A stretch of 61,065 bases of DNA, the filler included. It is 6 parts of 6 records of this genome, joined end to end, with 100 filler letters (N's around TTAATTAATTAA, not from the genome) between each part and the next. Parts side by side here need not be neighbours in the genome. Positions count along the whole stretch, not along the records: positions 1 to 13,692 come from SRR31147125_14796; 5 more parts are not named here. One strand, 5' to 3'. Shown here piece by piece: positions 2,987 to 54,649 of this stretch (its first letter is position 1; each line of letters opens with the position of its first letter). The notes under the pieces were generated by a model. It saw only the letters and a program-made list of their open reading frames with translations. It searched no databases and was not told the origin of the DNA. The translations under genes were made by a program, and so were the position numbers.

Positions 2987-4228
2987 TTAATTTTTGCTTC
3001 TTGAAAAGTTTGTTTGATAGAATTGAGTATTCTCTGAGTCCTTCAGTACAAGGTGGTCAATTTTTCCTGTGCCGTAGAAATAGTAAATAACTCCAAGTAA
3101 ATTCCCAAGGCTCTGTTTATATTCTTCACTAAAAACCAAATCATCTGCCAGATAAAGATTAAAATTGCCGTTTTCGGTTTTCATCATAATATCGAGCCAG
3201 TCAGACATGTCGACAGATAAAGGACTTAAGTCGCAGTATTTTCCATCAAAGTGTTTTTCAGAAATTTGCAAACTTGCATAACGGGAGCATTTTGGTTGGG
3301 TAAATTTAAAATCGATTGTGCCTGATTCGCCAATTAGCGATATCCCAATATCATAACATGAAAAACTTCCAGTCATTGCATTGTTTTGGACGCGAGTTTC
3401 AAGAATAAGCTTATCCAGACTTTTGTTAAAAGAGGAAAAGTATCTATAGCATGTGTAGTAATTCTGCTTTAAATCAATATCCTCATTTTTTAATAATTCT
3501 GGAGTAGCATAAAAATGATCAAGTTGGCGAAAGGATTGCTGATCATAAAAGGGTTGAAACTCTTTAGGCGAATCATTTGGGAAGAAACCAGCTTGCCAAT
3601 CCCTGCAATTAACCGTAATTCTTAAACTGTCCAGAACTTTAGATCGTGTTTTTAATACGACATTATAAACTCCAGCTTTTTGATAAAAGAAATTAATCAT
3701 TGATCGGCTAGGTGCAAGGTATGTTTCTCTTTCATTTTCGAAAATTGCAAAAACACTGTCCTTATAATCTGTTATGTCATAGTGAAAAGTTGCAGTGTAG
3801 GGATAATAATCAATAGCGTTTTTACACGAAAATGAGTGATGCTTTGGTATGTTTAAAAAGCTTATTAATATTATAATTCCAATTATAAATGAAACAGAAA
3901 TGAATCGATTCAATTTTTTTGTTTTTTTTTGAATTTTTTTTCGGAATAAGTTTTTTCTAAGTGACCGATTTTTAGGGGTGCTTGTGAACTTAATTAGTGC
4001 TAATTTACTATATGCTTGAGGTTGGTAATTTTCAGTGTCAACTTTACGTTTGCCAAATATTCGTTTTAAAGTTTCTTCACTAATACGATCACCTGTTTCA
4101 TCCAGAATCGCCTTGCTTAGCTCCTTGAAATGGTAATTAGTCCATTCGGATGGAGATCCCCAATTATATCTTTGAGTAATTGCTAACGTAATTTCTTCTA
4201 AGTCGAATTCTTTCATGTCGAATTTCAA
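2987..4228 (-). CDS. Hypothetical membrane-anchored protein: N-terminal HTH-like domain, one TM helix, PKD-like plus beta-sandwich extracytoplasmic region
   Basis: 413-aa ORF. N-terminal WGSPSEWTNYHFKELS...ISEETLKRIFGK, Lys/Arg-rich linker, TM FISVSFIIGIIILISFL, PKD-like FFYQKAGVYNVVL. Real start may be ATG 4216. Confidence 0.7.
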   Translation of the reverse strand: MKFDMKEFDLEEITLAITQRYNWGSPSEWTNYHFKELSKAILDETGDRISEETLKRIFGKRKVDTENYQPQAYSKLALIKFTSTPKNRSLRKNLFRKKIQKKTKKLNRFISVSFIIGIIILISFLNIPKHHSFSCKNAIDYYPYTATFHYDITDYKDSVFAIFENERETYLAPSRSMINFFYQKAGVYNVVLKTRSKVLDSLRITVNCRDWQAGFFPNDSPKEFQPFYDQQSFRQLDHFYATPELLKNEDIDLKQNYYTCYRYFSSFNKSLDKLILETRVQNNAMTGSFSCYDIGISLIGESGTIDFKFTQPKCSRYASLQISEKHFDGKYCDLSPLSVDMSDWLDIMMKTENGNFNLYLADDLVFSEEYKQSLGNLLGVIYYFYGTGKIDHLVLKDSENTQFYQTNFSRSKN

Positions 4229-5702: not shown

Positions 5703-7229
5703 ATGAATAATTTAAAAGAAACTGAATGGAGAAAGTTTTTTATTACCGTTTTACGAATCGCTATTGGATGGCATTTTTTATACGAAGGTGTTTCAAAACT
5801 ATTGACTGAGAATTGGACTGCTGCTCATTTTTTAGGTAATTCAAATAGCTTTTTGTCTGGGTTTTATAAATGGTTGGCTTCTCCGGAAATTATTGGTGTT
5901 ATTGATTTCCTGAATATTTTCGGATTAATCATCATTGGCTTGGCATTATTTGTTGGATTGTTTGTTCGATATGCAGCCTTGGGAGGGGTATTGCTTTTAT
6001 CTTTATATTATTTTGCATACCCTCCGTTTGGCGCTTCGTTGATGATGCAATCTGAAGGTTCGTTGTATATTGTAAACAAGATTTTTATTGAAGCAACGAT
6101 CCTGTTTGTATTTCTTTTTCTAAAAGAAAGGGGATACGGATTAGATGGTTTTTTGAAGCTTCGCAAAGTAGGGTATATAAAATCAAGCAGCCCTGAAAAA
6201 CAAACTGAGACAAATACTCGTCGTGAAGCTTTAAAAAATTTAGCAACAATCCCAGTTCTGGGTGTAGTTGGGTTCGGTGCACTTCAAAGTCAGAAAAAGT
6301 ACAAGGTAGATGTAACTTCTGGTGCAACAATACAGGTAAAACAAGCTTCTTTGAGTGATTTGAAAGGGGAGCTTCCTAAGGGGAAAATTGGGGAACATGA
6401 ACTTGGGCGTTTAGTGGCTGGAGGAAATCTGATTGGAGGTTGGGCGCATGCTCGGGATTTGGTTTATGTGCCTTCTCTTTTTAAAGCATATAATACTGAG
6501 AAAAAAGTGTTTGAAACATTAATGCTTGCAGAGCAGGCGGGTATCGATACCATCAATATTGGTTTTCCTTCAAACCCTCTTCTTCAAAAATATAAAGCAG
6601 TAACAGGAAGTAAAATAAAAATCATTTCGCAGGTAGGACCAGATATGAAAAATGAGGATTATGGGTTGAATATTAACAAGGCTATTGATTACGGGGTTGA
6701 TATTATTCAGATACAGGGGAATTGGTGTGACTGGTTGGTTCGCGATGGGAAAATTGAAGTTGTTGGGAAAATGCTGGATATTATAAGAGAACAAGGATAC
6801 ACTGCTGGTTTAGCTTCGCACACTGTTGATGCTCTAATTGCTTGCGAAGATCAGGGCATTATTCCAGATTATTATATGAAAACCATGCATCACGATCAGT
6901 ATTGGTCTGCTCACCCAAGGGAGAATCGAGTTCCGTTTGAAGTTGATGGGAAAAACCATCTTGATCACAATAAATTCCACAATAACATTTTTTGCCTTTT
7001 CCCTGATCGAACAATTGAGTTTGTGAACCGGGTGAAAGTTCCTGTAATGGGATTTAAAGTTTTGGCTGCTGGAGCAATTGAGCCTGAGGATGGATTTAAA
7101 TGGGCATTTGAGAATGGTGCTGATTTTATTTGCGTGGGAATGTTCGACTTTCAAATTGTAAATGACGTTAATATCACCATTGATACTCTTAATAATTTAA
7201 CGAACCGAAAACGAGAGTGGTTTGGGTAA
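5703..7229 (+). CDS. Fusion: DoxX/DoxD-like 4-TM domain + internal twin-arginine helix + aldo/keto-reductase-like barrel
   Basis: LRIAIGWHFLYEGVSKL (DoxX), TRREALK at aa 172-178, C-terminal LPKGKIG..LGRLVAGGN...FKVLAAG...FICVGMFDFQ. Confidence 0.8.
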   Translation: MNNLKETEWRKFFITVLRIAIGWHFLYEGVSKLLTENWTAAHFLGNSNSFLSGFYKWLASPEIIGVIDFLNIFGLIIIGLALFVGLFVRYAALGGVLLLSLYYFAYPPFGASLMMQSEGSLYIVNKIFIEATILFVFLFLKERGYGLDGFLKLRKVGYIKSSSPEKQTETNTRREALKNLATIPVLGVVGFGALQSQKKYKVDVTSGATIQVKQASLSDLKGELPKGKIGEHELGRLVAGGNLIGGWAHARDLVYVPSLFKAYNTEKKVFETLMLAEQAGIDTINIGFPSNPLLQKYKAVTGSKIKIISQVGPDMKNEDYGLNINKAIDYGVDIIQIQGNWCDWLVRDGKIEVVGKMLDIIREQGYTAGLASHTVDALIACEDQGIIPDYYMKTMHHDQYWSAHPRENRVPFEVDGKNHLDHNKFHNNIFCLFPDRTIEFVNRVKVPVMGFKVLAAGAIEPEDGFKWAFENGADFICVGMFDFQIVNDVNITIDTLNNLTNRKREWFG

Positions 7230-7248: not shown

Positions 7249-7283
7249 AAAAAAGGGGATAATGTTTAAATTAATCCCCTTTG
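7249..7283. terminator. Probable bidirectional terminator between convergent genes
   Basis: aaaggggat...atccccttt inverted repeat. Confidence 0.6.
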
Positions 7284-13692: not shown

Positions 13693-13792
13693 NNNNNNNN
13701 NNNNNNNNNNNNNNNNNNNNNNNNNNNNNNNNNNNNTTAATTAATTAANNNNNNNNNNNNNNNNNNNNNNNNNNNNNNNNNNNNNNNNNNNN
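13693..13792. other. Artificial contig linker
   Basis: N44-TTAATTAATTAA-N44; stop codons in all six frames. Confidence 0.99.
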
Positions 13793-15487: not shown

Positions 15488-16471
15488 TTAACTATTTAAT
15501 CCGGTCATTCCGGCTTTTGAATAACGTGCTCCAGTAACTTTATTTTTATGGAAAATTTCATCGATTTTTCTGATGACATCATCACTTAGGTGAATTTTAG
15601 CAGAAGCAACATTGTCAGTCAAATATTTGATTCTTTTAGTCCCAGGAATAGGTACAATAAATGGTTTTTTATGCATCCCCCATGCAATAGCAAGTTGTGC
15701 AGTTGTACAACCTAGTTTTTTAGCTTGTAAATTGAGGAATTCGATAATTTTATTATTATTATCCATATTTTCATCTGAAAATCTAGGTGCAAATCTTCTA
15801 AAATCGCCCTCTTCAAATTGTTCTTTGTTTTTGATATTTCCCGATAACAAACCTCTGCTAATGGGACTATATGCTACGAAACCTATATTATTCTTTTCAC
15901 ACACTTCAAATACTCCGTTGAACTCCATATCTCTGGTCATTAAGGAATACTCACTTTGAACAGCAGTAATAGGAAAAATCTCGTGTGCTTTCTGTAATGT
16001 AGCTGCTGAAACTTCTGATAAACCTATATGTTTTATTTTCCCCTCTTTTACTAAATCGGCCAATGTGCCAATAGTTTCTTCTAAAGGATACTCATTATTT
16101 AACCTATGTGCATAATAAAGGTCTATACAATCAACCCCGAGTCGTTTAAGTGAATTTTCACATGCATTTCTAATATATTCAGGACTATTATCAATGACTC
16201 TTTCATATTTTCCTGCTTCTCTTTTTATACCAAATTTTGTTGCGATAATAAGTTTATCTCTTTTGTCTTTTATAAATTTCCCCAATAACTCTTCATTATG
16301 TCCAAATCCATAGGTGTCAGCAGTATCATAAAAATTTACTCCAAGCTCATACGATTTTTCCAGAACTTTAAGGGATTCCTTATCATCTGCCTTACCATAA
16401 AATTCAGACATCCCCATACATCCAAGCCCTATTTCATTTACCTCTAGATTGCCAAGTGTTCTCTTATTCAT
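15488..16471 (-). CDS. Aldo/keto reductase
   Basis: IGLGCMGMSEFYG, DTADTYG..HNEELLG, ATKFG, IDLYYAHR, VQSEYSL, YSPISRGLL, PIPGTKR. Confidence 0.95.
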   Translation of the reverse strand: MNKRTLGNLEVNEIGLGCMGMSEFYGKADDKESLKVLEKSYELGVNFYDTADTYGFGHNEELLGKFIKDKRDKLIIATKFGIKREAGKYERVIDNSPEYIRNACENSLKRLGVDCIDLYYAHRLNNEYPLEETIGTLADLVKEGKIKHIGLSEVSAATLQKAHEIFPITAVQSEYSLMTRDMEFNGVFEVCEKNNIGFVAYSPISRGLLSGNIKNKEQFEEGDFRRFAPRFSDENMDNNNKIIEFLNLQAKKLGCTTAQLAIAWGMHKKPFIVPIPGTKRIKYLTDNVASAKIHLSDDVIRKIDEIFHKNKVTGARYSKAGMTGLNS

Positions 16472-25487: not shown

Positions 25488-25587
25488 NNNNNNNNNNNNN
25501 NNNNNNNNNNNNNNNNNNNNNNNNNNNNNNNTTAATTAATTAANNNNNNNNNNNNNNNNNNNNNNNNNNNNNNNNNNNNNNNNNNNN
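25488..25587. other. Artificial contig linker
   Basis: N44-TTAATTAATTAA-N44. Confidence 0.99.
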
Positions 25588-34656: not shown

Positions 34657-34756
34657 NNNNNNNNNNNNNNNNNNNNNNNNNNNNNNNNNNNNNNNNNNNN
34701 TTAATTAATTAANNNNNNNNNNNNNNNNNNNNNNNNNNNNNNNNNNNNNNNNNNNN
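34657..34756. other. Artificial contig linker
   Basis: N44-TTAATTAATTAA-N44. Confidence 0.99.
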
Positions 34757-41639: not shown

Positions 41640-41739
41640 NNNNNNNNNNNNNNNNNNNNNNNNNNNNNNNNNNNNNNNNNNNNTTAATTAATTAANNNNN
41701 NNNNNNNNNNNNNNNNNNNNNNNNNNNNNNNNNNNNNNN
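41640..41739. other. Artificial contig linker
   Basis: N44-TTAATTAATTAA-N44. Confidence 0.99.
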
Positions 41740-54549: not shown

Positions 54550-54649
54550 NNNNNNNNNNNNNNNNNNNNNNNNNNNNNNNNNNNNNNNNNNNNTTAATTA
54601 ATTAANNNNNNNNNNNNNNNNNNNNNNNNNNNNNNNNNNNNNNNNNNNN
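54550..54649. other. Artificial contig linker
   Basis: N44-TTAATTAATTAA-N44. Confidence 0.99.

Follow-up and report, generated by a model that had tools for sequence, protein, structure and literature searches.

The locus at 5703..7229 (+) raises the question of whether one polypeptide might carry a membrane domain inserted by Sec and a barrel domain handed over to Tat, and of what such a protein would do. It lies on the first contig (1-13692) of the window, a stretch of 61,065 nucleotides in which unrelated contigs are joined by N spacers, and is a single unbroken open reading frame of 508 aa. An earlier note on this DNA had described it as a DoxX domain fused through an internal twin-arginine (RR) helix to a barrel, a description upheld both by the one ORF and by a large, genuine family of fused homologues. 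The features of the gene are:

5703..7229, + strand: fusion gene of 508 aa comprising DoxX, twin-arginine helix, flavinylation motif and aldo-keto-reductase (AKR)-fold barrel (ORF reading, homologues)
5730..6119, + strand: DoxX-subfamily membrane domain with four predicted TM helices and an N-terminus predicted to be cytoplasmic (Pfam PF07681, model, Lys/Arg per loop, alignment of fused and split forms)
6120..6215, + strand: basic loop of low conservation (aa 140-171) with a predicted cytoplasmic location and a short helix at 147-157 (alignment, model, Lys/Arg count with a mean of 8.2 in aa 141-174)
6216..6236, + strand: twin-arginine motif T172-R-R-E-A-L-K178 (RR in 303/303 full fusions)
6240..6284, + strand: segment of moderate hydrophobicity (aa 180-194) in which P184 and G187 are conserved, a candidate Tat-inserted fifth helix (alignment; split Gfo/Idh/MocA partners begin with this signature)
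6294..6305, + strand: basic KKYK after the helix, aa 198-201, a Sec-release feature in known dual-targeted proteins (Lys/Arg counts; passages of PMC5449189)
6309..6329, + strand: ApbE flavinylation motif D203-V-T-S-G-A-T209, with T209 as the predicted FMN acceptor (definition in a passage of PMC12052999; conservation; flexible low-confidence segment 200-209 in the model)
6372..7226, + strand: (beta/alpha)8 barrel of the AKR fold lacking the AKR tetrad (domain model, Foldseek and wide structure search, profile alignment)

The top 120 homologues of the fusion protein are 492-540 aa long and 66-77% identical to it, the nearest coming from Prolixibacteraceae (Sunxiuqinia, 77%), and 5636 of 8000 scored candidates (279-889 aa) match it. 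A scan of GTDB recovered 340 stretches encoding a relative; most of the 80 retained are labelled as Bacteroidota, the others being some Acidobacteriota, a single Opitutaceae and a single Planctomycetota. The family as a whole carries the phylum labels Bacteroidota, Acidobacteriota, Verrucomicrobiota and Planctomycetota, and some genomes have paralogues, with up to 7 barrel matches per genome. Longer fusions (890-2540 aa) were not found in a weak search for them, and among the loci examined the DoxX and RR-helix module was seen fused to no other enzyme. Contigs of relatives from public runs are gapless over parts of the gene, one of them covering 6230-6691, and as none spans the DoxX-RR junction they are silent on that junction; the public runs listed as carrying the gene include no RNA run. 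Promoter and terminator scans around the gene stayed at chance level. The neighborhoods of 80 close relatives hold no conserved gene, the commonest neighbor being present in 17/80. Glycoside hydrolases and sulfatases are among the frequent neighbors, and, being abundant in these genomes, are not taken as evidence for a substrate; a nucleoside:H+ symporter-family gene lies upstream of the fusion gene and is likewise not a conserved neighbor among the 80 relatives. The fusion family itself is well supported on comparative grounds as genuine and appears to be a new combination of two known kinds of system.

The N-terminal domain is recognized by the Pfam DoxX model (PF07681) over aa 14-101 with an E-value of 3.1e-7 and 31.4 bits, above the cut-off of 23.6, and the DoxX motif LRIAIGWHFLYEG is located where it had earlier been placed. 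In the full-length AlphaFold2 model (150-row alignment; mean pLDDT 89.7, pTM 0.66), long helices at aa 2-34, 61-84, 88-105 and 126-139 precede the RR, the TM helices being predicted at about aa 10-34, 61-84, 88-105 and 126-139; residues 147-157 form a short helix and 173-199 a further one, with low confidence in the linker between them (160-171) and in the segment (200-209) that leads to the barrel. Across 40 fusions with less than 65% identity, the set to which all residue frequencies 'of 40' below refer, the mean Lys/Arg count is 2.8 in the N-terminus, 1.1 in loop 1 (29 aa), 1.0 in loop 2 (5 aa, R89), 0.2 in loop 3 and 8.2 in loop 4. Under the positive-inside rule, this distribution predicts that both the N-terminus and the RR lie inside. 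The proposal that an even number of helices places the RR in the cytoplasm agrees with the four predicted helices before it and the N-in charge pattern.

The motif T172-RREALK (nt 6216-6236), the segment LATIPVLGVVGFGAL (aa 180-194) and the KKYK (198-201) are at the positions that the earlier note gave. The conservation of the RR, on which its dual-targeting proposal hinged, holds in 303/303 full fusions. Of these, the full-length search supplied 121 (this protein among them), GTDB loci 74, the barrel-only search 21, searches of genomes 20, and a metagenome scan 67, the last being biased because the RR peptide served as its seed. The wider RR..P/G signature is present in all 303/303, including 21/21 from the barrel-only search; a chimeric protein with a partial DoxX and a single R (P0358) stands outside this set. 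R173 and R174 are invariant in 104/104 aligned fusions and in 40/40 at <65% identity, and such invariance beside an unconserved flanking linker is more than would be expected by chance. The resemblance to the Tat motif S/T-R-R-x-F-L-K that had been drawn holds for the arginine pair and fails at the consensus F position, which is A in this protein and is occupied by L in 21, M in 5, A in 3 and V in 3 of the 40 fusions. Within the following segment P184 is kept in 39/40 and G187 in 36/40, and the helix is followed by at least one Lys/Arg in 40/40 and by at least two in 88%.

According to passages of PMC5449189, dual-targeted families are recognized by an even helix count, by an RR that precedes a last helix of low hydrophobicity and by a C-terminal positive charge, and their relatives also occur as split pairs. 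By this comparison of sequence features, we consider it likely that the barrel is handed over to Tat, making the protein a dual Sec/Tat substrate. TatC and ApbE are both encoded in 5/5 host genomes of relatives; they are common anyway, being present in 11/14 and 8/14 of the control genomes, respectively. Were all five helices instead inserted by Sec, the barrel would fold outside and the RR would act as a positive-inside signal only. The hydrophobicity of the RR helix is compatible with this, its sum on a crude scale (4.6) being about level with those of helices 1 and 4 (both 4.4) and denoting a weaker helix than helices 2 and 3 (-0.3 and 1.2). However, Lys never substitutes for either Arg (40/40), basic residues after the last helix block Sec insertion in the families tested (PMC5449189), and the stand-alone relatives discussed below use RR signals, which leaves insertion by Sec throughout highly improbable.

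A search with the barrel alone yielded 1011 clusters. Among the 65 stand-alone clusters with a plausible start, an RR precedes the barrel in 58, and a TATFind-like pattern is matched by 53; many of these N-termini look like canonical Tat signals with F-L-K. The question of whether unfused barrel homologues carry N-terminal twin-arginine signals is answered in the affirmative by these 58/65 clusters. A search for shorter barrel relatives gave mostly fragments, which were left out of the signal counts. On a quick tree, some of whose 'unfused' rows may be truncated fusions, the fused and stand-alone barrels are interleaved and the well-supported branches require a minimum of 10 label changes, pointing to repeated fusion or loss with an RR signal on both sides of the change.

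A profile of the membrane module also found stand-alone DoxX genes coding for about 160 aa, each with a separate gene a few bases after it that Pfam assigns to Gfo/Idh/MocA. Such a gene adjoins the stand-alone DoxX in 25/25 Acidobacteriota and 20/20 Bacteroidales loci (30 loci examined per search, of 40 and 57 matches). The same RR..P helix as that at aa 172-194 is found at the N-terminus of 54/57 Gfo/Idh/MocA partners, and R, R and P are invariant across 57 aligned rows including this protein. Thus, the internal helix of the fusion corresponds to an N-terminal twin-arginine anchor in its relatives, paired with DoxX whichever enzyme follows. A version of Tat export in which signal peptidase cuts after this helix, so that a soluble FMN-tagged enzyme meets DoxX transiently, finds some encouragement in the small residues at positions 190 (G/A/V in 32/40) and 192 (A/G/S in 35/40), which form an A-x-A-like pattern around a large residue, and in the often cleavable-looking signals of the stand-alone barrels. 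We nevertheless hold it to be very improbable: the basic residues come after, not before, the would-be cleavage site, the P184/G187 pattern persists whether DoxX is fused or split, as one would expect of a helix that stays in place, and little would be gained from the fusion if its product were cut.

Besides the retained helix, the linker holds an element that had been overlooked, together with its apbE association, leaving the earlier picture incomplete rather than wrong. The segment D203-VTSGA-T209 is an exact match to the target motif of ApbE, given as D-x-x-[S/T]-G-A-[S/T] in a passage of PMC12052999. Position 206 is S/T in 40/40 fusions and position 209 in 39/40, with S and T interchanging, and D203 is kept in 32/40. 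The strict motif occurs in 18/34 fused as against 2/65 unfused clusters and a loose version in 24/34 as against 5/65, even the loose one being missing in 10/34 fused clusters; a background of 445,860 residues contained 0 strict and 13 loose hits. The gene apbE directly adjoins DoxX in 21/25 of the Acidobacteriota split loci and adjoins long-insert DoxX genes in 14/16 rows from Planctomycetota, where most genomes are counted twice; it is found within 1.5 kb of the split DoxX in 0/20 Bacteroidales loci. Among 181 fused-locus rows, L070/L188 (one genome) and L146 have it next to the fusion and in L234 it is convergent, amounting to two independent same-strand cases and one convergent case, and no apbE is present on the first contig (1-13692). 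The Gfo partners have D-x-x-[ST]-[GST]-[AP]-[ST] near residue 437 in 43/57, at a place unrelated to that of the fusion's motif; it is missing in 14/57, several of these with an adjacent apbE. These counts cover enzymes adjoining DoxX, the comparison away from DoxX consisting of 1 row, and the Fisher tests on them (p 1e-8, 1e-10) take no account of kinship and are given no weight here. On the strength of the motif and its genomic associations, the fusion protein is likely to be flavinylated, with ApbE attaching FMN to Thr209.

On which side of the membrane this would happen is a separate matter. Most ApbEs beside the split DoxX genes show no hydrophobic signal, some retaining only RR-x-F-L, and hence the motif alone does not fix the membrane side; the flavin might be attached before export. 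These many signal-less neighbors would also suit an arrangement in which the RR helix is a retained, untranslocated signal-like anchor, a cytoplasmic barrel uses free NAD(P), a cytoplasmic ApbE flavinylates it and DoxX is fed from inside, as would the want of the consensus F after the RR, the strong basic charge after the helix and the uncertain position of helix 5 in the full-length model (pLDDT about 54-67 between aa 171 and 200). Against it stand the invariance of the RR over four phyla next to an unconserved linker, the canonical Tat-type N-termini of the sister stand-alone barrels, the exported look, by eye, of both ApbEs beside fused genes (Tat-like in L070, lipobox-like in L146) and the position of the conserved polar DoxX residues in the predicted outer half. 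A cytoplasmic barrel consequently strikes us as improbable, and we retain export by Tat with helix 5 kept in the membrane as the preferred reading.

The barrel, modelled as a domain with a pLDDT of 97.2 and a pTM of 0.94, has AKRs as its top Foldseek matches (4exa, E 2e-9). In a wide structure search, AKR-fold chains occupy ranks 1-25, with other TIM barrels at Z 15.8 and below; it superimposes on PA4992 (4exa) with Z 20.0 and an rmsd of 3.1 over 226 aligned residues, on Cbei_3974 (6hg6) with Z 18.6 and on the Luteolibacter L-galactose dehydrogenase (9w6y) with Z 18.4. A profile of 22 AKRs matches the barrel family in hhalign at 95.4%, and the barrel profile matches the single AKR encoded elsewhere in the window at 1.2% only. 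Neither the full protein sequence nor the barrel profile gave anything significant against solved structures (best E for the latter 0.0085, to other TIM barrels), and in the ESM Atlas the barrel matches unnamed clusters only (0.88-0.90). The catalytic tetrad of the AKRs is Asp-Tyr-Lys-His. This tetrad is absent from the barrel family, which has lost the D-T-A-x-x-Y loop, has Gln/Asp/Cys in place of the beta3 Lys and keeps the beta4 His in 19/86. The Pfam AKR model (PF00248) has no match in this protein and matches 1/118 family members, at E 0.003. Of the previous designation 'AKR-like', the fold survives and the catalytic residues and Pfam AKR membership do not; as modelled, the barrel is an AKR-fold protein and not a member of the AKRs. 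Its family conserves another set of residues, namely H249, R251, D252, Y255, Y263, H373, D389, K393, T394, H396, Y400, K452, G479, M480 and D482. Given the loss of the tetrad, redox chemistry and NAD(P) binding remain putative. The beta7/beta8 segments align with the cofactor-binding end of AKRs in the profile alignment, and it is from these segments only that a bound NAD(P) is inferred; we judge the chances of this cofactor in the barrel and of a sugar-like substrate to be evenly balanced.

Bringing these elements together, we propose that Sec would insert the four DoxX helices and release the fifth, that the barrel would fold with its cofactor before export, and that Tat would then carry the folded barrel to the periplasm with helix 5 staying in the membrane. 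ApbE would attach FMN to T209, and electrons from the barrel may travel over the resulting flexible FMN arm to DoxX, at its outer face, and from there probably to a membrane quinone. A periplasmic NAD(P)-type enzyme has no free pool with which to re-oxidize its cofactor, a problem that an FMN tethered to it and docking on a membrane module would solve. The account as a whole, in which Sec and Tat both take part in inserting a periplasmic dehydrogenase that bears an FMN tag and is connected to the membrane via DoxX, is one that we moderately favor.

The role of DoxX in this account depends on what kind of domain it is. The fusion protein scores below the cut-offs of Pfam DoxD (E 0.018, 15.4 bits against 22.7), NCBIfam DoxD (12.7 bits against 300) and Pfam MauE, there is no DoxA part within the 508-aa protein, and a DoxX profile has no significant match among solved structures. 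In the alignment of fused and split forms R18, G22, W23, H24, G29, K32, W38, P107 and E130 are invariant and E28, D68 and N71 near-invariant, the polar positions among these (H24, E28, K32, W38, D68, N71, E130) lying mostly in the predicted outer (periplasmic) half; only one invariant residue is a His, which speaks against a heme pair within one chain. The quinone link of this DoxX subfamily is weakly indicated by a sub-threshold kinship to DoxD, and a quinone is as apt to be the electron acceptor as not. The sub-threshold DoxD matches, the want of a structural match and the single His would all be accommodated if the protein were exported and flavin-tagged with DoxX serving as an anchor or docking scaffold, electrons passing to a periplasmic cytochrome or NQR/RNF; alternatively, the barrel chemistry might be other than NAD(P)-linked oxidation and use the His/Asp/Tyr cluster, in keeping with the lost AKR tetrad and the newly gained conserved polar set. 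That most stand-alone barrels are devoid of the flavinylation motif would suit either variant. Both taken together seem unlikely to us, as the invariant polar set of the fused and split DoxX forms is more what one expects of a binding site than of a simple anchor, DoxX pairs with two unrelated NAD(P)-type folds that both bear the motif, and the beta7/beta8 segments correspond to a cofactor-binding end.

Returning to DoxX as an electron-transferring partner, we tentatively posit, as a broader scheme that falls a little short of an even chance, that this DoxX subfamily is an unrecognized membrane terminal, or plug-in socket, for flavinylated periplasmic enzymes. Two unrelated NAD(P)-type folds would have been captured via the same twin-arginine anchor helix and covalent-FMN arm, so that nicotinamide enzymes could run as net dehydrogenases with electrons going to quinone; the present gene would be the single-chain version, a fifth dual Sec/Tat family and the first in which the exported domain is a non-metal one, its barrel having a new active site. 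If the account of the fusion protein proposed above is true, the protein would be an undescribed kind of wired-in periplasmic enzyme, in which oxidation outside the cytoplasm feeds the membrane, and would suggest, in testable form, by what route NAD(P) enzymes exported by Tat have their cofactor re-oxidized there. It would also add a large family (340 GTDB stretches) to the handful of proteins that need both Sec and Tat, and would place DoxX among the membrane proteins that partner with ApbE flavinylation. For the DoxX family, which is poorly understood, it would provide a single-polypeptide assay system.

Among known systems, the closest parallels in targeting are the Class IV Tat substrates, which in passages of PMC5449189 and PMC13673990 comprise the actinobacterial Rieske proteins, Sco3746 (an MsrQ-MsrP-like fusion), the MLMS-1 polyferredoxin (a NapH-NapG fusion) and a long YkuE; Rieske proteins are the only example in those of the 2026 review (PMC13673990). 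The fusion shares with them the even number of predicted helices, the conserved RR, possibly the weak hydrophobicity of the last helix, the basic residues after it and the folded C-terminal domain, as well as relatives consisting of a separate membrane protein and a Tat-signal enzyme, as in MsrPQ and NapGH. It differs in that its membrane module is a DoxX domain without heme His pairs or Fe-S, and in that the exported domain is an AKR-fold barrel rather than a metal-cofactor domain and is accompanied by a flavinylation motif. DoxX is absent from the six searchable supplements and the passages of PMC5449189, whose online candidate list could hold PF07681.

With respect to flavinylation, the ApbE-dependent extracytosolic electron-transfer systems covered in parts of PMC8238504 and bioRxiv 2024.03.13.584918 include the FMN_bind domains of NqrC/RnfG/NosR/PplA, NapH-, MsrQ-, PepSY-, DsbD- and DUF4405-linked proteins, and fumarate/urocanate reductases. 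The present family has in common with these the same D-x-x-[S/T]-G-A-[S/T], an apbE in the cluster and a membrane partner combined with an outside enzyme; unlike them, its motif lies in a short linker and not in an FMN_bind domain, the partner is DoxX, and the enzyme has an NAD(P)-type fold. Neither source mentions DoxX in its main text (0 occurrences), although the supplements of both could list PF07681, and DoxX goes unmentioned in the Tat and flavinylation literature among the matches listed. Literature searches, with subscription journals largely outside their scope, found neither the combination of DoxX and ApbE nor that of DoxX, MocA and Bacteroid-, and no such protein is evident in the titles and abstract openings of the further matches listed.

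The AKRs (4exa, 6hg6, 9w6y) resemble the barrel in their fold, the N-terminal hairpin and beta1, the GIN at beta2 and the beta7/beta8 segments, and the barrel departs from them in its 12-16% identity, the lack of a Pfam match, the lost tetrad elements, the other polar set, its tether to the membrane and its likely export. For the membrane module, the nearest reference is the thiosulfate:quinone oxidoreductase (TQO) DoxDA, which passes electrons to decylubiquinone and of which DoxD-DoxA fusions exist (passages of PMC6335251). Its DoxD is a distant relative of the fusion's membrane domain; the fusion differs in its DoxD match far below the cut-off, in having no DoxA, and in that no sulfur-oxidation context was seen. 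The precedent that TQO, with this distant relative, offers for a quinone acceptor is thin. Finally, Gfo is exported by Tat with bound NADP, which is recycled on a second sugar, and BT2158 has been proposed to behave likewise (passages of PMC8121099). The export of a folded protein with a tightly bound nicotinamide cofactor, putative in our case, would be common to these and to the fusion, and their Pfam family is that of the split DoxX partners. In contrast to Gfo and BT2158, the fold of the enzyme in the window is a different one, and net oxidation would become feasible through its flavin arm and membrane module.

Three features flank the gene coding for the DoxX-barrel fusion, in which a DoxX domain, a twin-arginine helix, an ApbE flavinylation motif and an AKR-fold barrel occur in one chain (5703–7229, plus strand):

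2987–4228, minus strand: unannotated protein of 413 aa
4396–5646, plus strand: MFS gene of the Nucleoside:H+ symporter family (Pfam E 9e-75; under the TIGR00889 cut-off)
7252–7282: inverted repeat AAAGGGGAT ... ATCCCCTTT, between convergent genes (found by eye)

The MFS gene lies upstream on the same strand, separated by 56 nt, and is possibly co-transcribed with the fusion gene; it is not conserved as a neighbour. The 413-aa protein had no match in a Pfam search, and a protein resembling it by eye is encoded in L168 (6–1235), where its gene precedes a DoxX-barrel paralogue and points away from it. Proteins of this type are perhaps regulators or membrane sensors tied to DoxX-barrel loci. The inverted repeat, which is absent from the terminator-scan output, is likely a two-way terminator. 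As the window consists of six mutually unrelated contigs joined end to end, genes past 13692, including a true AKR gene, are not neighbours of the fusion gene:

13693–13792, 25488–25587, 34657–34756, 41640–41739 and 54550–54649: N spacers
15488–16471: true AKR gene, on a different contig from the fusion gene

Duplication is seen among the relatives, with one locus carrying a tandem partial duplication directly behind a full fusion gene:

L100, 1589–2107: stand-alone second DoxX-domain copy

Two genomes (G260 and G257) have seven barrel-family matches each, for the most part fused paralogues, suggesting that their substrates might have diversified.

In Planctomycetota, DoxX variants of 410–490 aa have an insert of 250–300 aa between helices 1 and 2, and have apbE on one side and a Gfo/Idh/MocA gene, where one was seen, on the other (L263–L278). 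Where DoxX is split, i.e., a stand-alone gene adjoining a separate Gfo/Idh/MocA gene, the order can be reversed with DoxX downstream (L178, L232, L236, L251); in L178 the next gene codes for a protein with an F5/8 type C domain. Most ApbE proteins adjoining split DoxX lack a hydrophobic signal, and many keep a bare RR-x-F-L start (L191, L237–L258, L272–L278); they may be cytoplasmic or undergo piggy-back export. One Gfo/Idh/MocA clade lacks the flavinylation target motif D-x-x-[ST]-x-A-[ST], although apbE is adjacent (L191, L195, L248, L250, L252, L253, L256, L258); a Ser/Thr-rich segment takes the equivalent place and may constitute a variant target.
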